From a virus (Duplodnaviria > Heunggongvirae > Uroviricota > Caudoviricetes): 28,446 bases of DNA. Location of the stretch: the IMG/VR virus record IMGVR_UViG_2622736468_000007; one strand, written 5' to 3'. Under the pieces are notes generated by a model. That model had not been told where the DNA came from. It ran no database searches and saw only the letters and a program-made list of their open reading frames with translations. The translations under genes were made by a program, and so were the position numbers. This document shows positions 1,880 to 10,687 of the stretch, one piece after another; the first letter of the stretch is position 1, and the number at the start of each line of letters is the position of its first letter.

Positions 1880-2132
1880 TGCAAGCCTCACAATATAGTT
1901 AAATGCGATGTTTTTGACGGTGTTTTCCGCGTTACCAGCAGCGTTAACGGTGATGGTGTGTCCATGTGAACCAATCGCAACGGAGTGCGTATGTCATCCC
2001 TTTCAGGTGAATGATATTTCCATACGCTGTTGGATATCCGTTGTTATACACCTCGTATAACTCAAGACCTGTTGCCCCCTGCGTATTGTCTGTCAGCGCG
2101 GTTAACCGGGGCAAATGATGAGTATCGTCCTG
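1880..2132 (-). pseudogene. side tail fibre (stf) 3' remnant with internal deletion and stop
   Basis: Minus-strand translation gives tail-fibre C-terminal peptides (...[22 protein letters not shown]... and ...[28 protein letters not shown]) separated by an in-frame stop; no 5' portion present. Confidence 0.55.
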
Positions 2133-2876
2133 TTAACCTGCGGCGCTGACAGCCACCGTAGCCACTGCCACAAAATCGCCGTCAGCGGTCATGCCCACAA
2201 TGCTGACACTGCCCTGCTTCACGCCTTTTACCGTGGCCACAAGTCCGTTCAGGGTAACCGTGGCAGTCTGTGGATCTGACGAATGCACACTGATCGCTTT
2301 GTCACTGGCTCCGTCAGGTTTTACTGTAAAGGTCAGCGTGGTGGTTGCTCCCACTTTTACACTGGCAGATGCCGGTGATACTGTCAGCCCGGTAACGCTC
2401 ACGGTTTCAGTGCCTTCCTCTGCCAGATACGGACGCCCCACACCGCTGATTTTCACAGTGCGGGTCATCACGTCTTTTGAGGCAATGGTTTTACCCAGTG
2501 AGCTCAGCCAGCCACGGAAAACATCAACAGTGCCGTTGGGATATTTGATACGAAACGCGCAGACTTCACCGGAGTCGAACAACTGAACCAGTTTTTTCTG
2601 CCCGCTGTCACCCGGACGCCAGGCCAGCGTCGCCGAAGTATCACCAACGGATTTCTGCCCCTGGGTTGTCGTTTTCCAGTCTGCATCTTCATCATCGAGA
2701 TAAGTGTCATCTTCTGCATCAGCGGTCATTTCGCCAGGTTGCAGATCCTTCACCATCGCAAGACGCAGCCAGTCAGTGTCCGACAAAGGGTTCGCAAACG
2801 CATCGCCGTTGCCGGTATACATCCAGAACGTCGTCCCCGCACCTTTCGTCTTTGCCAGTGGATTTGGTGTAGTCAT
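2133..2876 (-). CDS. major tail protein, lambda gpV-like with C-terminal Ig-like domain
   Basis: ORF 2133..2951; likely start at internal ATG (2876) preceded by TAAGGAGGTGGTA; MTTPNPLAKTKGAGTTFWMYTGNGDAFANPLSD... matches the remembered lambda V N-terminus and C-terminal Ig-like repeat region. Confidence 0.85.
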   Translation of the reverse strand: MTTPNPLAKTKGAGTTFWMYTGNGDAFANPLSDTDWLRLAMVKDLQPGEMTADAEDDTYLDDEDADWKTTTQGQKSVGDTSATLAWRPGDSGQKKLVQLFDSGEVCAFRIKYPNGTVDVFRGWLSSLGKTIASKDVMTRTVKISGVGRPYLAEEGTETVSVTGLTVSPASASVKVGATTTLTFTVKPDGASDKAISVHSSDPQTATVTLNGLVATVKGVKQGSVSIVGMTADGDFVAVATVAVSAAG

Positions 2877-2975
2877 TACCACCTCCTTAATTCGTGTACG
2901 TGATCTGGTACGTGATTTCCGCCATCGCCCAGGTGGCCATCTCATTATCACGTTGATAGTTAAAACCGAGTGGGA

Positions 2976-3200
2976 TCAGGGTGTCGATGAGTCCGGAAAG
3001 TGCCGGTACCCGGGATGCCCCCGTCGTCGTGTAATCAGAGCCGCAAGGCGGCGCTCCCACTCCTGCCGTCCCTGCCGGATCTCAGATAAGTTTTCCATGG
3101 TCATCTGCTGACCATTAAAGGTGACGGATTTTCCGTCCAGCACCGCCATTTCAGCTTCCGTATAACGCTGAATCATGGCTTCGATATCATTCTGGTTCAT
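2976..3200 (-). CDS. gpW-like head-tail joining protein (small, directly after terminase)
   Basis: 74-76 aa ORF whose ATG overlaps the terminase stop (ATGA) with GGAGG just upstream; position and size match lambda W; C-terminal RRRG motif. Confidence 0.45.
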   Translation of the reverse strand: MNQNDIEAMIQRYTEAEMAVLDGKSVTFNGQQMTMENLSEIRQGRQEWERRLAALITRRRGHPGYRHFPDSSTP

Positions 3201-5298
3201 AACCATCCTCCGGAAGTCAGCCAGGGGTTAACATCGTCAGTTACTGTTTTCTTCCGTTTTTGTTTTTTAACAGGCGTGGATACCGGTTCCGGTGTGGGTG
3301 ACGGTTCGGTACTGTCCGGGACACACTCCAGCCAGGTTTCCCGGCTCGCCCACTCCGGTGCATCCGGCCAGCGGATCTTTTCGTATCCATGCAGAATGAC
3401 CAGAGCCTCGGCATACACCATCAGGTCAAAAGCTTCGTTGGCACCGCGACCCGGCTTACTCCATTTCCCGTCACTGCTCCGCTCTTCATACGTCAGTTCG
3501 TCGTAAAACCAGCTCCCCAGCCAGTCAGGGAAATGCACATAGCCGGGACCTGGCGAGTCACGCCATAACGCGTTATTCACCCGGTCTTTCAGGGCATCCG
3601 TCTGAAGAAGCCAGAGCGGTACATCACCTGCGGCCTGCGCCCGTCGGCCCGTTCGTCCGGTGTTATCAGGGAATGTACGGGTGATCAGTTTTGCGCGCCG
3701 GATGCTGTCGCCCTTAAACAGGTAAATACGTTTACCAAGGCCATCACGACGGCAACGACGCCAGAATTTATAGGCATTATCAGTGACTCCGTCTTCACCG
3801 CCGGAGTCCACCGCCATTGCCATCAGTCGCATTTGTTGAGAAGGATCGGAGGCCAGCGGCCAGCTTTTATGAAAAACATCCGTCAGCAGGACATCCCAGT
3901 CTTCCGGATAGCTGGCCGGATCAATTCGCTGGCTCTCCCCGTCGCTGTCACCGCGCAATGACTGCGTGATGTTGTAACGATCAATAATCCAGCGTTCGCC
4001 ACGGCTGCCATAGCCCGTTACCTGAACCACAAAACGGCGATGACGTCCCGCCTGCACATCAACTGTCGCCACCAGGAAATTAACGCCATCCGGCACACTG
4101 CGGGAAGGAACTGGCTCTGCCCGCTGCTCAAGCAGTTCACTTTTTCGTTGCTCCATGCTGGCACGGGGAAGATAAGGTAATCCCCAGTCGGTATTGATAA
4201 CCGTCTTGAGTGTTTCTTCACTTCCGGTTGTCTCGTATTCCTGTTCTGCAGCAAGCAGTTTGTAAACGAGTTGCGAGAGTGTCTGGTAAGCAGCTGCCGG
4301 ACCCTCCATCCAGAATGACGCAATACGTGAGCGTCGGGGATCACCATAACGACTGCCATCCGCATTGATGGATTCACCATCCCGCAACCAGACCCCACGT
4401 CCGTTCAGCTCACGTTTTTGTTCAGGCATAATCCGTCCTGAACAGGAAGGACACTGAATATAAGCCGCCTCACTTGCCAGCACGGGATCGGCAATATCAC
4501 GGAAACCAGCAACCACATCGCCGCAGGGCTGAAAATACTCACCACAGTGTGGACAGGGCCAGTACCAGCGACGGCGATCGCCACGGTTATAGAGCGACAG
4601 TATCCCCGTGGTTGGTGGAGCCTCATGCGGTGAAGTCCGTCGCCATTTCACATCCTTCACATCCCTGCCGGGGAACTCTCCACCAGCGTCATACCACTGG
4701 ACATAAATGTGGTGGTACGTTTTGAGGCAAGAGAGAAGGCATCCTCCTCGCCATCAATATCTTCCGGAAAACGGTCATAATCCGTCAGCGCCACGCATTT
4801 ATAATCTGATGAGGACATGATATTGACTGACGGCCAGCCGATTTTCAGGTAGTTGCCAGCAAGGAATGTTCTGTCATAAACGTTGTTGTCATTTTTGTTC
4901 GGACTCAGGCGACTGACCACTTCCGGGCTGACGCGAAACGTTCTGGCAAGTCGTTTTTTGGAGTGTTCGCGGGCTTTTTCCTCCGTCATCTGAATGATCA
5001 GCATATCAGCAGGATCGCAAATCACGTTGTAAATCACCCAGCCGTCAATCAGGCCGATAGTCTTGCCAGTTCGTGCCGGGCCAACAAATATCACTGCGTC
5101 GTATTCACGCGAGGCCAGGCAGTTCATCGGCTCAATAACATACGGTGCCACCAGCGGATCCCACGGGACTGAGTTCCCGGCCCCCATGGGCACCCGCATA
5201 TACTGAGCAACGGCATCAGCAACCCGCATTCGTCTCGGTGCGCGAAGGATATAACCTGAATCGGTTCGTGCTGCCTTTGCGGTTTCCTGATTCAGCAT
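3197..5298 (-). pseudogene. terminase large subunit (GpA family) split into two frames (4657..5298 N-terminal ATPase part; 3197..4660 C-terminal part)
   Basis: N-terminal ORF carries Walker A (VIFVGPARTGKT); C-terminal ORF carries CPHCGEYF zinc-finger-like motif and nuclease region; frames change near 4657-4662, where the second ORF only has a GTG start overlapping the first ORF's TGA. Confidence 0.75.
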
Positions 5299-5300
5299 TA

Positions 5301-5468
5301 CTCCTCCTGCTGTAATTCCTCCTCATCATCCGCACCTGCTTCGGTCACCCGCAGGGCTATCTGATCGCGCAGATCATCAATAATGGACTGAACACGGCTC
5401 ACAGCGGCAGGCTGCAGGCCGCAGTCACGTTCCAGAATATCCGGTAATGTCTCCAGCACCTGCACGAC
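5301..5468 (-). pseudogene. terminase small subunit (Nu1-like), C-terminal part separated by IS insertion
   Basis: 56 in-frame codons ending ...DDEEELQQEE* with TAA overlapping the large-terminase ATG (TAATG); in frame with the N-terminal part across the IS629 insertion. Confidence 0.6.
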
Positions 5469-5510
5469 TGAACCGCCCCGGGTTTCCTGGAGAGTGTTTT
5501 ATCTGTGAAC

Positions 5511-6401
5511 TCAGGCTGCCGGATCATCGTTTCCGATGGAAGCATAATAAGCTTTTTCTGCTTCTGCCGGAGGAGTATGGCCCAGCCTTTCCAGCAATCG
5601 TCGATTGTTATACCAGTCCACCCACGTGAGTGTGGCCAGCTCCACTTCTGTCCGGTTTTTCCAGCTCTTACGGTGTATTACCTCCGCTTTGTAAAGACCA
5701 TTGATGCTCTCCGCCATCGCGTTGTCATACGAGTCGCCTGTACTTCCTGTTGATGCCAGTAATCCGGCTTCCTTAAGCCGCTGTGTGTAGGCCAGCGATA
5801 CATACTGAGAACCTTTATCACTGTGATGGACCGTGCCGGACGGTCGACGGGCCCATAACGCCTGCTCCAGTGCATCCAGCACGAATGTCGTTTCCATGGA
5901 CGATGAGACCCGCCACCCCACGATGTATCCGGCAAACACATCAATGATGAACGCCACATAGACGAAGCCCTGCCATGTGCTGACGTAAGTAAAATCAGCC
6001 ACCCACAGCTGGTCAGGTCGTTCTGCCACGAACTGACGGTTTACGCGGTCGCCTGCGGCAACGGCTTTCCGGCTGATGGTCGTACGGACCTTTTTACCCC
6101 GGAGAACACCGGCAAGTCCCATAACCGCCATGAGACGTGCCACAGTGCATCTGGCCACTCTGATACCTTCCCGTAACAACTGACGCCAGACTTTACGCAC
6201 ACCGTATACCTTGTGATTTTCATCGTATACGCGCTGTATCTCTTTCTTCAGCCAGTCATCGCGCTGCGCACGGGCACTGCGTTTATCCGGATGATGTCGC
6301 TGTTGCTGACAGTGGTAATACGTTGACGGGGCAATATGCAGTTCGCTGCATAGCGGTCCGACCCCGTACTGCTCACGCAGCTTATCCAGCAGTGGCATCA
6401 T
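5511..6401 (-). CDS. IS3-family transposase OrfB (DDE catalytic domain)
   Basis: 296 aa; typical IS3-family integrase-core sequence. Confidence 0.9.
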
Positions 6402-6724
6402 TTTTTCCAGAGGCGGTCGAACTCCGCCTTCGCAAAATAAGCGGAAGCCTGGCGAAGGATATCGTTACTGCGGCGCAGTTCACGATTTTCACGCTCCAGC
6501 TCTTTCAGACGCTGACGTTCAGCGGTGGTGAGCCCTCCATCACCGCCCCCGGTATCCCGCTCATGCTGGCGAACCCAGACACGCAGAGTCTCCGGCGTAC
6601 AGCCAATCTTTGGAGCAATGGAACAAATTGTCGCCCATTGTGAGTCATATTCGCTCTGACTTTCCAGAACCATACGGACTGCCCGTTGACGGACTTCGGG
6701 GGAAAAACGAGTATTTTTAGTCAT
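6398..6724 (-). CDS. IS3-family transposase OrfA (HTH, leucine zipper)
   Basis: 108 aa [19 protein letters not shown]...; overlaps orfB start as expected for frameshift-fused OrfAB. Confidence 0.9.
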
Positions 6725-6778
6725 CCTGTTTACCTCTTTCTCAGGAAGTTTAGTCTCCAGGATTCCCGGGGCGGTTCA

Positions 6779-7103
6779 CGACCGCTTTTGCCCAGATGGC
6801 AAACTCCCGTCTGACATCACTGGCCGGAATGAGTTGTGCCGTTTCCTGTTCGAACTTAAGACGCTCACGTTCAGACTGATACCAGGCTTTGCGTTCATGT
6901 GGATCCATTTCGCCCTCAGCAACCGGCGGTGGTAACCCCATAAATTCAGTCAGAATATCGGTCAACCGGTATAGCTTGAGTTTGTCATGTCCACCAGCGG
7001 GACGAATGTTTTTCAGTCTTGCCACGACAGTCTGGCGGTGCAGACCAGATAAAGCCGCCAGTTGATTAATATTCAGCACCAGGTTTTTCAACTCATGATC
7101 CAT
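6779..7103 (-). pseudogene. terminase small subunit (Nu1-like), N-terminal part interrupted by IS629-like element
   Basis: ORF 6750..7103 MDHELKNLVLNINQLAALSGLHRQTVVARLKNIRPAGG... (winged-HTH like Nu1); the last 8-9 codons are read-through into the IS end. Confidence 0.7.
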
Positions 7104-7264
7104 ATTTCCTCCGGAGAGCTTTAAACATGCATCGTGCGAACAACTTTAAGAAAACGCGTTCGATGTCGAACAAAAAACACTCAATTCGACATACAAAAAA
7201 CAAACAACCATTAATAATCAATAAGATGCAAAGATGATGGTGGCCGATAAAAATGCAAAAACTA

Positions 7265-7295
7265 GCCTTTTTCCGCGACGCTCCCGCCCCGTGGC
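7265..7295. other. candidate cos (cosN-like) site upstream of small terminase gene
   Basis: Minus-strand GGGGCGGGAGCGTCGCGG resembles remembered lambda cosN GGGCGGCGACCTCGCGG; lies ~170-190 bp upstream of the nu1-like start, as in lambda. Confidence 0.4.
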
Positions 7296-7470
7296 AGGGC
7301 CCCCCACAGGGAGGACCCGACAGCCTGACAACCGTGACGAGCATCTGAAACAGAGCTTTACATAATGGCATGGGGATAATTCAGAAGGACATCACAGCAT
7401 GCCCACACAAATTAGTGTGAGTGTCCTGTTTCTTACTACGCGCAGGACTGACGAGCATGAGGGGAAAATA

Positions 7471-8052
7471 GTAAGCGTACAGCCTGAACCGTCTGGTCAG
7501 AATCTGACGAATTAGACAAAGTGGTGTCCACCAAATAAGCAGTGGGAACCAAAGTATCAGATATGCAGAAAAATGTGACTCCCGGCAGGCGAAAAGGCTG
7601 CCCTAATTATCCTCCCGAATTTAAACAGCAGCTCGTTGCTGCCTCCTGTGAACCCGGGATATCCATCTCAAAACTTGCTCTTGAAAATGGCATTAACGCC
7701 AATCTGTTGTTCAAATGGCGACAACAATGGCGCGAGGGAAAGCTGCTATTACCTTCTTCAGAGAGCCCCCAGCTACTTCCTGTGACTCTCGATGCAGCTG
7801 CCGAACAGCCAGAATCGCTCGCAGAGGACCCGGAAACCCTCAGTATCAGCTGTGAGGTAACGTTCCGGCACGGGACGCTCCGCTTCAATGGCAATGTCAG
7901 CGAAAAGCTCCTGACTCTGCTGATACAGGAACTGAAGCGATGATCCCGTTACCTTCCGGGACCAAAATTTGGCTGGTTGCCGGTATCACCGATATGAGAA
8001 ATGGCTTCAACGGCCTGGCTGCGAAAGTACAAACGGCGCTGAAAGACGATCC
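7471..8052 (+). repeat. 582-bp inverted duplicate of the orfA-proximal end of the IS66-family element (partner 9913..10494)
   Basis: Sequence 7471-8052 is the reverse complement of 9913-10494 (orfA proteins identical except one residue, E/K). Confidence 0.85.
7563..7943 (+). CDS. IS66-family OrfA (TnpA accessory protein), partial-copy duplicate
   Basis: ORF 7542..7943 (GTG) with likely ATG at 7563; MQKNVTPGRRKGCPNYPPEFKQQL... Confidence 0.8.
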   Translation: MQKNVTPGRRKGCPNYPPEFKQQLVAASCEPGISISKLALENGINANLLFKWRQQWREGKLLLPSSESPQLLPVTLDAAAEQPESLAEDPETLSISCEVTFRHGTLRFNGNVSEKLLTLLIQELKR

Positions 8053-8056
8053 GTAA
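7940..8056 (+). pseudogene. IS66-family tnpB truncated after codon 38 at the junction with the inverted complete copy
   Basis: [38 protein letters not shown] ; the stop is supplied by the GTAAGCG terminal repeat of the adjacent copy. Confidence 0.8.
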
Positions 8057-8089
8057 GCGTGCAGCAAGAACCGTATTGACGGGGATGTG

Positions 8090-9628
8090 TTATTCAGTCG
8101 GCAGTGCTACGCGCCAGGGGAGCAGTTCGCCGACCCGGTTTATCGGCCAGTCGGCTATGACGTCAAGGACATAGCGGAGGTAGCTTTCTGGCTCCACTCC
8201 GTTCAGTTTGCACGTCCCGATCAGGCTGTACAGCAGCGCTCCCCGCTCTCCTCCATGATCCGAACCGAAGAACAGGTAGTTTTTGCGGCCCAGACTGACC
8301 ATCCGCAACGCATTTTCAGCGATGTTATTGTCCGCCTCAGCCCAGCCATCATCTGCATAGTACGTCAGCGCCGGCCACTGGTTCAGGGCGTATGCGAACG
8401 CTTTCGCCAGTTCTGAGTGTCGCGACAGGGTTTTCATCTTTTCACGCAGCCAGCTTTCCAGGGATTTCAGCAGCGGTTTCGTTTTCAACTGACGTTCGGC
8501 AAGGCGCTGTTCCGCCGTCATTCCCCTTATCTCTGCCTCGATGGCGTACAGTTCGCCGATCCGTTTCAGCGCTTCCTCCGTCAGGGCTGACGGGGTGCGA
8601 ACGTGCACATCGTGGATTTTACGGCGGGCGTGAGCCCAACAGGCGGCTTCCGTTATCCGGCCATCCCGGTACAGCTCGTTGAACCCGGCGTATGCATCCG
8701 CCTGCAGTACACCACTGAACCCCGCAAGATGGGTCTGCGGATGGATGCCTTTTCTGTCCGGGCTGTAAGCGAACCACACCGCCGGCGCCAGCGTTGACCC
8801 GGCGTTACGGTCGTCACGAACATACGCCCACAACCGCCCGGTCTTCGTTTTCTTATTGCCTGGCAACAGCACCGGGACAGGCGTGTCATCAACATGGAGC
8901 TTACCGTCAGTCAGCACATAGCCATGAAGCGCCTCTTCCAGCGGAGACAGCAGCCGGCAGCATGCATCCACCCAGCCCGACAGCAGTGAACGGCTCAGCT
9001 CCACACCTTGCCGGCCGTATATTTCTGACTGGCGATACAGCGGGGTGTGCTCTGCATACTTCGAGGTCAGCACGCGGGCCAGCAGCCCCGGTCCGGCGAT
9101 ACCCCGCTCGATGGGCCGCGAAGGTGCAGGTGCCTGCACGATGGCATCGCACTGAGTACAGGCATGTTTTTCCCGTACCGTCCGGATAACCCGGAAGGCG
9201 CTACGCATCAACTCCAGCTGTTCGGCGGTATCCTCGCCCAGATAACTCAGTGAACCGCCGCAGTTCGGGCAGCACGGCGCCGCAGGCAACAGTCGCTTTT
9301 CGTCACGGGGTAGTGATTCAGGGAACGGCTTACGGGTGCGGGTCTGACGCAACGGACGCTGTACTGCCGGGTCATACACCCTACCAGTCAGCGTATCGCT
9401 CTCTTTCTGAAGCCGGTTCAGATCGGCTTCCATTTGTGCGATACGGCGGGAGACTTTTTCGGAACGACTGCCGAAGTTCATCCGGCGGAGTTTATCCAGC
9501 TGCGCCTGCAGATGGTCTATTTCGCGCTCCCGGTTGCTCAGCTTTTCCTGCAGGGCGTGGATCAGCGCTTCCTGTTCGGCCAGGCGCTGTTTCAGCAGGA
9601 AGATGTCGTCAGAAGAGATGTCGTTCAT
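8090..9628 (-). CDS. IS66-family transposase (TnpC, DDE)
   Basis: 512 aa; leucine-zipper N-terminus, CxxC zinc motif, DDE core typical of IS66 transposases. Confidence 0.9.
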
Positions 9629-9677
9629 AAGCCCGTATTTTACCGGGCTTATTCTGTGACAACCAGGATAAAGAGAT

Positions 9678-10025
9678 TTACAGCATGGTCAGGGAGGTCA
9701 GCAGCCGCTTAGGCTGTCGCCAGTCGATACCTTCCAGCAGCATCGCCAGCTGCGCCTGTGTAAGGAACACTTTGCCATCACGGGCTGACGGCCAGGCGAA
9801 GCGCCCACGCTCCAGCCGTTTGGTCAGGAGGCACAGTCCGTCACCGGTGGACCACAGCAGTTTAACCTGACTGCCGCTGCGGCCCCGGAAAATGAAAACA
9901 TGGCCGGACATGGGATCGTCTTTCAGCGCCGTCTGTACTTTCGCAGCCAGGCCGTTGAAGCCATTTCTCATATCGGTGATACCGGCAACCAGCCAAATTT
10001 TGGTCCCGGAAGGTAACGGGATCAT
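9678..10025 (-). CDS. IS66-family TnpB
   Basis: 115 aa [31 protein letters not shown]...; ATGA overlap with orfA. Confidence 0.9.
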
Positions 10026-10402
10026 CGCTTCAGTTCCTGTATCAGCAGAGTCAGGAGCTTTTCGCTGACATTGCCATTGAAGCGGAGCGTCCCGTGCCGG
10101 AACGTTACCTCACAGCTGATACTGAGGGTTTTCGGGTCCTCTGCGAGCGATTCTGGCTGTTCGGCAGCTGCATCGAGAGTCACAGGAAGTAGCTGGGGGC
10201 TCTCTGAAGAAGGTAATAGCAGCTTTCCCTCGCGCCATTGTTGTCGCCATTTGAACAACAGATTGGCGTTAATGCCATTTTCAAGAGCAAGTTTTGAGAT
10301 GGATATCCCGGGTTCACAGGAGGCAGCAACGAGCTGCTGTTTAAATTCGGGAGGATAATTAGGGCAGCCTTTTCGCCTGCCGGGAGTCACATTTTTCTGC
10401 AT
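10022..10402 (-). CDS. IS66-family OrfA (TnpA)
   Basis: ORF 10022..10423 (GTG start); likely ATG start 21 nt in. Confidence 0.85.
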   Translation of the reverse strand: MQKNVTPGRRKGCPNYPPEFKQQLVAASCEPGISISKLALENGINANLLFKWRQQWREGKLLLPSSESPQLLPVTLDAAAEQPESLAEDPKTLSISCEVTFRHGTLRFNGNVSEKLLTLLIQELKR

Positions 10403-10687
10403 ATCTGACACTTTGGTTCCCACTACTTATTTGGTGGACACCACTTTGTCTAATTCGTCAGATTCTGACCAGACGGTTCAGGCTGTACGCTTACGGAAAA
10501 TACGCGAACCGAAATGCCTTATCTTCAGAAATGCAGCCGGCATCCGAACTGGACGATATTGTAAATTCACCTAAATACGAGGCATTGCTGTAGTTGAATT
10601 GCAGTACTGTATTAGCCTGACAGTGACAGAATACGATATTGACTCTGTCACTTGTGAAATGGTCAGAATGGTTAGCAGTTATGGTGA

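Follow-up and report, generated by a model that had tools for sequence, protein, structure and literature searches.

An IS66-family derivative of 3024 bp bounded by two left ends transposes as a unit in the E. coli MRE600 lineage

ISEc8 of E. coli O157:H7, which counts ISEc22 among its close relatives, is an IS66-family insertion sequence of 2442 bp that encodes tnpA, tnpB and tnpC, ends in GTAAGCG termini and is flanked by an 8-bp target-site duplication (TSD). In the related element IS679, transposition reportedly needs all three gene products. The transposition chemistry and the end requirements of IS66 elements are poorly characterised experimentally, and the literature searched held no experimental account of either the end requirements or the mechanism in this family. 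In IS10/Tn10 and IS50/Tn5, compound and "inside-out" transposition are familiar: any two ends in the right orientation serve the transposase, so that copies lying side by side or one within another give rise to new mobile units. By the ISfinder naming convention one IS name covers elements with >95% nucleotide and at least 98% amino acid identity. Here we describe a composite of two ISEc8-like copies with left ends (IRL) on both outer sides and a right end (IRR) buried within it, of which no description was found in the literature searched.

The window, a stretch of 28,446 nucleotides from IMG/VR virus record IMGVR_UViG_2622736468_000007, carries the composite in a decayed lambdoid prophage, where it separates the lysis genes from a Nu1-like DUF1441 gene (Table 1). 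A complete 2442-bp ISEc8-like element (element B) lies on the minus strand, with its IRR adjoining a second copy that is limited to its first 582 bp. The 582-bp inverted terminal duplication that had been predicted was recovered as two arms, 7471-8052 and 9913-10494, which are 99% complementary (99.3% identical) and differ at four IS positions (70, 86, 363 and 562). Chance origin is ruled out for a near-perfect inverted repeat of 582 nt. The outer termini are of the same end type, as had been proposed; both are IRL, and the IRR is internal, at 8053. An 8-bp duplication of GGAAAATA lies directly against both GTAAGCG termini. One further copy only, at 26943, is found on the plus strand of the window, and a random match of an 8-bp repeat at a fixed position is expected once in 65,536.

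Table 1. Features of the composite and its flanks (positions in the window)
Feature	Position	Strand	Evidence or remark
Target-site duplication, left copy GGAAAATA	7463..7470		Single copy at empty site of E. coli KE47
Mobile composite, 3024 bp, IRL-bounded on both sides	7471..10494		Identical unit at 8 loci, 5 with TSD
Outer left terminus, IRL of truncated copy A' (GTAAGCGTACAGCCTGAACCGTCTGG)	7471..7496	+	Sequence comparison
tnpA of truncated copy, 126 aa from ATG (GTG-start ORF from 7542)	7563..7943	+	PF01527, E=1.8e-12
tnpB stub, 38 codons; final codon and stop (CCG TAA) formed by the IRR junction	7940..8056	+	Translation
GACGATCC, IS positions 575-582, tnpB nt 106-113	8045..8052	+	Putative 8-bp target of the founding nested insertion
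Element B, complete IS66-family element, 2442 bp, ISEc8-type IRL and ISEc22-type IRR	8053..10494	-	~96% nt identity to ISEc8
Internal IRR of element B (GTAAGCGTGCAGCAAGAACCGTATTG), buried within the composite	8053..8078	+	Inverted-repeat pairing
tnpC, DDE transposase, 512 aa	8090..9628	-	PF03050 (E=1.8e-106), PF13005, PF13007, PF13817
tnpB, intact, 115 aa	9678..10025	-	PF05717, E=1.2e-38
tnpA of complete copy, 126 aa from ATG (GTG-start ORF from 10423)	10022..10402	-	PF01527
Outer right terminus, IRL of element B	10469..10494	-	Sequence comparison
Target-site duplication, right copy GGAAAATA	10495..10502		Single copy at KE47 empty site

The IS66-family assignment of the original prediction is borne out by PF01527 in the helix-turn-helix protein TnpA, PF05717 in the IS66 Orf2-like TnpB and PF03050 in TnpC. 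The four Pfam domains of TnpC, which cover the IS66 catalytic domain and zinc-finger and leucine-zipper regions, all score above their gathering thresholds. In the complete copy the three genes are intact, tnpA and tnpB lie upstream of tnpC, and the stop codon of tnpA and the start codon of tnpB overlap at 10022-10025. The two TnpA proteins of the composite differ by an E to K change. Element B has the imperfect terminal inverted repeats of IS66 type (about 20-30 bp, starting 5'-GTAA): the IRL GTAAGCGTACAGCCTGAACCGT and the IRR GTAAGCGTGCAGCAAGAACCGT are identical at 19 of the first 22 nt. The 8-bp TSD typical of the family is perfect in five insertions of the composite and in three simple copies. 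At about 95.7% nucleotide identity to ISEc8, and with a TnpC that is 95% identical in amino acids to the ISEc8 transposase (the N-terminal half is identical), element B would probably rank as a distinct named relative or a mosaic. The composite itself has an IRL at both outer ends, where a canonical IS has one IRL and one IRR. Nor does it have the make-up of a compound transposon, for there is no passenger and one arm is a 582-bp IS fragment abutting a complete IS.

The site before insertion is preserved in other strains. An uninterrupted site with a single GGAAAATA is found in three E. coli genomes; that of strain KE47 reads ...gagcatgaggGGAAAATAcgcgaaccg..., and in NZ_OL790696.1 and NZ_CP134663.1 the left-flank and right-flank matches share 8 bp. 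Because the KE47 empty site holds one copy, the 8-bp repeat is a real target-site duplication, and the predicted 3024-bp structure between identical direct repeats is a genuine insertion.

Copies of the composite were located by the product of the junction-specific 38-aa tnpB stub together with an exact TnpC. The search for the same composite elsewhere, which had been suggested as a check, returned seven or more other sites, so that eight distinct sites are known, all in the E. coli MRE600 lineage (the window, equal to L014, L031 and L035; L008; L009/L028; L010/L029; L011; L012; L013; and L016/L034). All copies are 3024 bp long, have the internal junction in common and differ by 0-2 nt. Five of the sites have distinct perfect 8-bp TSDs (GGAAAATA, GCATTCCC, GTTGTATT, GTACCATA and ATTTAAAC), and empty sites were verified for three insertions. 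The reconstructed empty site downstream of glmS is contiguous at 100% identity in 1923 E. coli genomes, and that of hchA, a gene disrupted by one copy, in 5364. A unit found at multiple sites, with its own TSDs and with empty sites, transposes as a unit by way of its two IRLs. The earlier proposal of a single transposition of a rearranged IS is upheld by these observations. All composites come from one strain lineage, and the independent transposition events therefore number at least five, not hundreds.

No direct repeat is present at three of the eight sites, L008 (on pMRE600-2), L009 and L013. This loss is attributed to later recombination or deletion between copies; no reciprocal flank partners of these three were found among the composite loci compared. 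The arm-specific differences at 86, 363 and 562 are common to all composite copies which, together with the common junction, points to a single founder for all of them. Simple copies of element B with TSDs are present at other loci. Continuing activity and recombination between the arms are suggested by an extra change at position 482 that L011 and L012 have in common, and by the simple copy L030, whose left end is a chimera of the short-arm alleles at 70 and 86 and the long-copy alleles at 363 and 562.

None of 5,426 RefSeq E. coli genomes contained the composite junction. Several candidates were set aside. Three matches that begin ahead of the junction (H91, H126 and H127) proved to be simple copies flanked by normal TSDs, and metagenome matches L023 and L024 are unrelated chance matches. 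A 17-nt flank that the composite seemed to share with plasmids H58-H60 is a gapped chance resemblance of GGAAATACCAGC and GGAAAATACGCG. RefSeq records annotated with two tnpA, two tnpB and one transposase gene are head-to-head full copies (plasmids of pO157 type) or ordinary nested insertions.

The alleles of the arms bear on how the founder was built. The short arm is 1 nt from the ISEc8 of pO157 and has the pO157-type alleles at 86 and 562, and the left end of the long copy is 1-2 nt from the L005/L017 alleles. Because the arms match different circulating ISEc8 variants, the founder was built from two different IS copies. The original prediction had described the orfC-side repeat as joined to an inverted copy of the element's own end (orfA plus 38 codons of orfB). 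The junction was confirmed, but the end is not the element's own, since its alleles at 86 and 562 are of pO157 ISEc8 type.

Our reading is that the unit in the window is, very probably, one copy of an autonomous multi-copy ISEc8-like IS66 derivative that moves as a 3024-bp IRL/IRL unit; its founder most likely arose by nested insertion. A 2442-bp copy B would have inserted in inverted orientation into the tnpB of a different resident ISEc8-type copy A, at the target GACGATCC. A(1-582)+B would thereby have come to be flanked by the IRLs of A and B, inverted with respect to each other and in the proper orientation. The TnpC encoded by B, with TnpA and TnpB, could then have used the IRL/IRL pair, skipping the internal IRR, and the remainder of A would have been left behind at a donor site now lost. 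Most likely, judging from the alleles, this two-copy founder arose at some other site. Nested IS66-in-IS66 insertions with a TSD of their own are common (L002 with CTTTATCC; L017/L018 nested in tnpA), which makes such an origin plausible. The composite has no second copy of GACGATCC. The un-rearranged parent would read ...GCTGTACGCTTAC, GACGATCC, CATGTCCGG (B-IRL, target, rest of tnpB), and when this junction was run as a synthetic query against the 5,426 RefSeq E. coli genomes, every match fell into two non-contiguous pieces; the nested origin is thus deduced rather than observed. We infer that the IRR is not required in cis in this IS66 subgroup, and that recombination also takes place between the 582-bp inverted arms.

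An ISEc22-type relic, widespread in E. coli, lies beside hsdMSR (L007, L015 and L022), where it is broken at the same tnpB nucleotide as the composite by a third IS66-type end. Its outer element has 110/113 identity to ISEc22 tnpB. Like the composite, it has the order IRL, tnpA, tnpB (38 codons), IRR, with identical breakpoint and orientation. Unlike the composite, it is made of other outer and inner IS types, its tnpA is internally deleted, its inner element is cut short at about 190 bp, and it occupies a single fixed locus without sign of mobility.

The composite and the relic together raise the hypothesis of a hot spot for IS66-into-IS66 insertion, and the coinciding breakpoint hints at one. 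The founder may then have come from an aberrant site-preferring reaction, for example one that favours nt 113 in the tnpB of another IS66 element as the point where an IS66 right end is attached, with IRL-IRL derivatives arising recurrently and spreading by IRL-IRL transposition. We consider this unlikely. An unrelated pair (ISEc22-type outer element and third IRR type) is joined at the same nucleotide in the same orientation, for which a second nested event by chance would have a frequency of about 1 in 4,900 per comparison, and the IRR-side flanks of unrelated simple copies resemble the site, as in gggAAGACGATta abutting the end in L020. However, those site-like flanks were chosen by BLAST extension and are hence biased, the other TSDs have no common motif, and other nested insertions lie at other positions. 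Only two junction types are known; both patterns were absent from the GTDB representatives, and no third was found in GTDB representatives, metagenomes or viral contigs. A broader form of the idea, that IS66 elements preferentially insert at GACGATCC (tnpB nt 106-113) in each other and repeatedly give "symmetrised" IRL-IRL derivatives at least as proficient in transposition as their parents, is likewise doubtful. If true, the family would have a self-targeting way of its own to generate new element architectures, and the IRR would be shown to be dispensable.

Two local histories would give the same window. In one, A inserted here with the TSD GGAAAATA, B inserted into the tnpB of A, and A 575-2442 was then deleted between direct ...ACGCTTAC termini, restoring an end beside the TSD. 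Nested insertions are common and the geometry works, because the IRL of B and the IRR of A would be direct repeats with 8 terminal nt in common. As an account of this locus it is nevertheless very improbable: the identical outcome would be needed at five or more sites, and the junction and SNPs common to all copies indicate a single origin. That the locus does not record two independent insertions, as had been anticipated, follows from the same composite with different TSDs at other sites. Nested insertion with deletion is possible as the origin of the founder. In the other history, a simple IS inserted, making the GGAAAATA duplication, and then copied and inverted its own left end in place by template switching, self-attack or auto-integration. 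In its favour, the TSD is undamaged on both sides and the arms match at 99.3%; a single window on its own does not distinguish this history from transposition of a unit. The original prediction had kept such an intramolecular event in view, but it hardly deserves credence at this locus: the junction and three arm-specific SNPs recur at eight loci with different TSDs, a self-copy is expected to begin with identical arms, and the arm differences are pre-existing alleles of two IS variants rather than new mutations. Near-identical inverted IS repeats are a classic source of mis-assembly, but the artefact first feared, in which two IS copies were collapsed or joined into a chimera, has next to no chance of being correct given clean TSDs with matching empty sites and independent assemblies of the structure in CP014197.1 and CP014200.1 (MRE600), GCA_901482365.1 (6 loci) and an IMG/VR contig.

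As a mobile IRL/IRL unit the composite is a natural experiment: it moves with left ends on both sides and its right end enclosed. It is a ready construct for asking which end features TnpA, TnpB and TnpC recognise. The unit has reached at least eight copies in MRE600, a strain widely used for ribosome preparation whose genome paper does not mention IS elements. There it is a source of genome instability: its arms are inverted repeats of 582 bp, the flanks of three copies are rearranged, and hchA is disrupted.

Element B resembles ISEc8 in its three genes, its 2442-bp length, its GTAAGCG termini and its 8-bp TSD, but has an ISEc8-type IRL and an ISEc22-type IRR and is probably a mosaic. The composite differs from ISEc8 as a 3024-bp mobile unit with 582-bp terminal inverted repeats, two tnpA genes, a 38-codon tnpB stub and an IRL at both ends. 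Ordinary nested insertions, with an inverted IS66 inside another (E. coli 2009C-3133 chromosome; plasmids pOkiPb01700_1 and pO177A1), are the presumed precursor state. In these, the outer element survives on either side of the inner one, which is bracketed by a TSD of its own (CTTTATCC). The composite, by contrast, lacks the far portion of its outer element, and its IRL-IRL segment has relocated to other sites. The compounds of IS10/Tn10 and IS50/Tn5 differ in carrying passenger DNA and a second complete IS and in using a different transposase family. The composite is a naturally occurring variant within a familiar class of element and does not represent a new type of system.

The 3024-bp composite joins a complete IS66-family element to a short inverted arm (see the table). 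A repeat finder and a base-by-base comparison confirm the original prediction of an IS66 element with a 582-bp inverted end, bracketed by 8-bp repeats. The two arms of 582 nt are 99% complementary and mismatch at four IS positions (70, 86, 363 and 562, counted from the left terminal inverted repeat, IRL). The flanking repeats are identical copies of GGAAAATA, and each touches an outer GTAAGCG terminus. The frame of the tnpB stub ends at a TAA supplied by the abutting right terminal inverted repeat (IRR; GTAAGCGTGCAGC..., starting at 8053), and the resulting junction-made 38-aa product, MIPLPSG...KDDP, is diagnostic for the composite.

Features of the composite and its prophage surroundings
Feature	Position in window	Strand	Remarks
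Arms of inverted repeat	7471-8052 and 9913-10494		
8-bp repeats	7463-7470 and 10495-10502		
Complete IS66-family element	8053-10494	-	2442 bp
tnpA of complete element	10022-10423	-	PF01527
tnpB of complete element	9678-10025	-	PF05717
tnpC	8090-9628	-	PF03050 (E=1.8e-106); IS66 zinc-finger, leucine-zipper and C-terminal domains
Short arm	7471-8052	+	IRL, second tnpA, 38 codons of tnpB
Composite junction	8045-8056		
Tail tube gene	2133-2951		
Large terminase gpA, two ORFs	4657-5298 and 3197-4660		
IS3-family element	5511-6724		
IS3-family orfA	6398-6724		
IS3-family orfB	5511-6401		rve domain
Nu1-like DUF1441 gene	6750-7103		
DUF4365-domain ORF	25932-26951		339 aa
Prophage integrase	27223-28446		

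The GGAAAATA repeat is a true target-site duplication (TSD), because E. coli KE47 has both flanks contiguous with a single GGAAAATA, and in two more chromosomes (NZ_OL790696.1 and NZ_CP134663.1) the matches to the left and right flanks share exactly 8 bp. The interrupted site is a decayed lambdoid prophage, with integrase, Q, KilA-N, lysozyme and Rz-like DUF2514 genes to the right of the composite and the Nu1-like DUF1441 gene, a split gpA terminase, a tail tube gene and an invertase to the left. The prophage is defective: gpA is in two ORFs and the tail tube gene comes almost directly after them, with head genes absent between (window 2133-5298). An IS3-family element, which looks IS629/IS1203-like by its OrfA sequence, lies directly left of the DUF1441 gene and appears to split it; the same locus in another assembly (L014) has a second DUF1441 fragment on the far side. 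A DUF4365-domain ORF adjoins the integrase.

The composite is a mobile unit. Exact-sequence look-ups, first with the 38-aa junction product and then with the exact TnpC, found eight distinct composite loci in MRE600 (CP014197.1, CP014200.1) and GCA_901482365.1. All copies are exactly 3024 bp and lie 0-2 nt from the window copy. Different perfect 8-bp duplications flank five of them: GGAAAATA (the window locus, retrieved as L014, L031 and L035), GCATTCCC (inside hchA), GTTGTATT, GTACCATA and ATTTAAAC (downstream of glmS). These loci and duplications support the earlier view of a single transposition of a rearranged IS. Uninterrupted matches at 100% identity to the reconstructed empty hchA and glmS sites occur in 5364 and 1923 RefSeq E. 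coli genomes, respectively. hchA, which encodes glyoxalase III and is intact in those 5364 genomes, is interrupted by the copy at L010/L029 (5532-8555). Megablast of the region found the whole 3024 bp as one 99.9% piece with other flanks on a sole plasmid, pMRE600-2 (CP014200.1). The window locus itself matches L014 at 99.98% (window 1941-14055) and occupies 3,921,128-3,931,666 of the MRE600 chromosome (L035). Searches of 5,426 RefSeq complete E. coli genomes and of the GTDB species representatives gave no copy of the composite, which on these data is limited to a single lineage.

Three composite copies, L008 (pMRE600-2), L009/L028 and L013, lack a duplication, and the two flanks of each come from unrelated contexts. 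At L009/L028 a sucrose hydrolase gene borders one end and P22-like prophage genes the other, and the pMRE600-2 copy is flanked by IS100 istA. These copies are probably the expected leftovers of recombination or deletion between copies, through deletions or inversions that the IS mediated within the MRE600 lineage; their reciprocal flank partners were not found among the loci in hand. Other copies show signs of continuing change. A further substitution, at IS position 482 of the full copy, is common to L011 and L012, one of which is probably a daughter insertion of the other. Position 70 has been homogenised between the arms in two composite copies. A simple 2442-bp copy without a TSD (L030, 3635-6076), in the same genome as composites (GCA_901482365.1), has a chimeric left end: its alleles are those of the short arm at 70 and 86 but those of the full copy at 363 and 562. 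Such a pattern implies recombination between the inverted arms; it would be expected if that recombination flipped the centre and the simple element was then lost or escaped.

The arm-specific differences at 86, 363 and 562 are common to all composite copies, which therefore descend from one founder whose arms already differed. A single nucleotide separates the short arm from the left end of the pO157 ISEc8, and the left end of the full copy is 1-2 nt from alleles of other simple copies. The arm differences are standing polymorphisms, and the short arm is therefore what remains of a second, different IS copy. The original prediction had taken it for an inverted duplicate of the element's own end, which the match to another IS copy contradicts. 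In the simplest route, the complete element (copy B) would have inserted, inverted, into tnpB of a copy A at GACGATCC (IS positions 575-582), and the IRLs of A and B would then serve as the end pair. In E. coli, one IS66 element is commonly seen nested in another, with a TSD of its own. Because the exact nested parent of the composite was not found, we only infer this step of the founder.

The same breakpoint occurs in an ISEc22-type relic adjoining hsdMSR (L007, 5761-6300; L015; metagenome contig L022), which is made up of an ISEc22-type IRL, a tnpA with a deletion and 38 tnpB codons. Many RefSeq E. coli apparently have the relic too, judged by 85.9% junction-crossing matches. Its tnpB breaks at ...GCGCTGAAAGACGATCC/GTAAGCGT (slash, break) and continues into the IRR of a third IS66 type, at the same tnpB nucleotide and in the same orientation as the composite junction. 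The relic tnpB is identical to that of ISEc22 at 110/113 positions, whereas the window stub reaches only 96/113; between partners this divergent, a junction is not readily transferred by homologous exchange. That one of ~4,900 combinations of position and orientation was hit twice independently points, on thin evidence, to a preferred tnpB target, which may be an insertion hot spot. No junction type beyond these two was found in all data scanned, including GTDB representatives, metagenomes and viral contigs; other nested IS66 insertions sit at other positions. In simple ISEc22-like copies unrelated to these, the IRR-side flanks look similar to the tnpB target (gggAAGACGATta/ at L020 3498-3510, ctgGAAAGttGATCt/ at L021 3498-3512 and GGCGCTGAcaagtgaact/ at L019 3501-3518) and may hint at a target preference, in a sample biased by having been picked by BLAST extension.

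Every testable criterion places the complete copy in the IS66 family, close to ISEc8. It is ~96% identical to ISEc8, and its TnpC is 95% identical to the ISEc8 transposase, with an identical N-terminal half and a diverged C-terminal half. The IRL is of the ISEc8 type and the IRR of a type present on ISEc22. Simple 2442-bp copies of this same element, 99.3-99.8% identical and with proper TSDs (TAATCAAC, TTTGAAAC, CACTGTAT), occur on IncF and other plasmids and on chromosomes. Two simple copies with identical TnpC (L032 and L033) carry six clustered ISEc22-like substitutions at IS positions 583-604, beginning right after breakpoint position 582. This cluster forms a mosaic patch, bounded on the left within a 16-nt block conserved between both IS types.

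Transposases of other families accept alternative end pairs (IS10, IS50). The searchable literature yielded neither experimental data on the ends of IS66 elements nor a description of this IRL-IRL composite, which offers a useful way into the question of how IS66 ends are recognised; the tnpB hot spot is a modest, testable lead. The composite differs from the canonical IS architecture in its two IRLs, 582-bp terminal inverted repeats and extra tnpA; since it carries no passenger, it does not count as a compound transposon.
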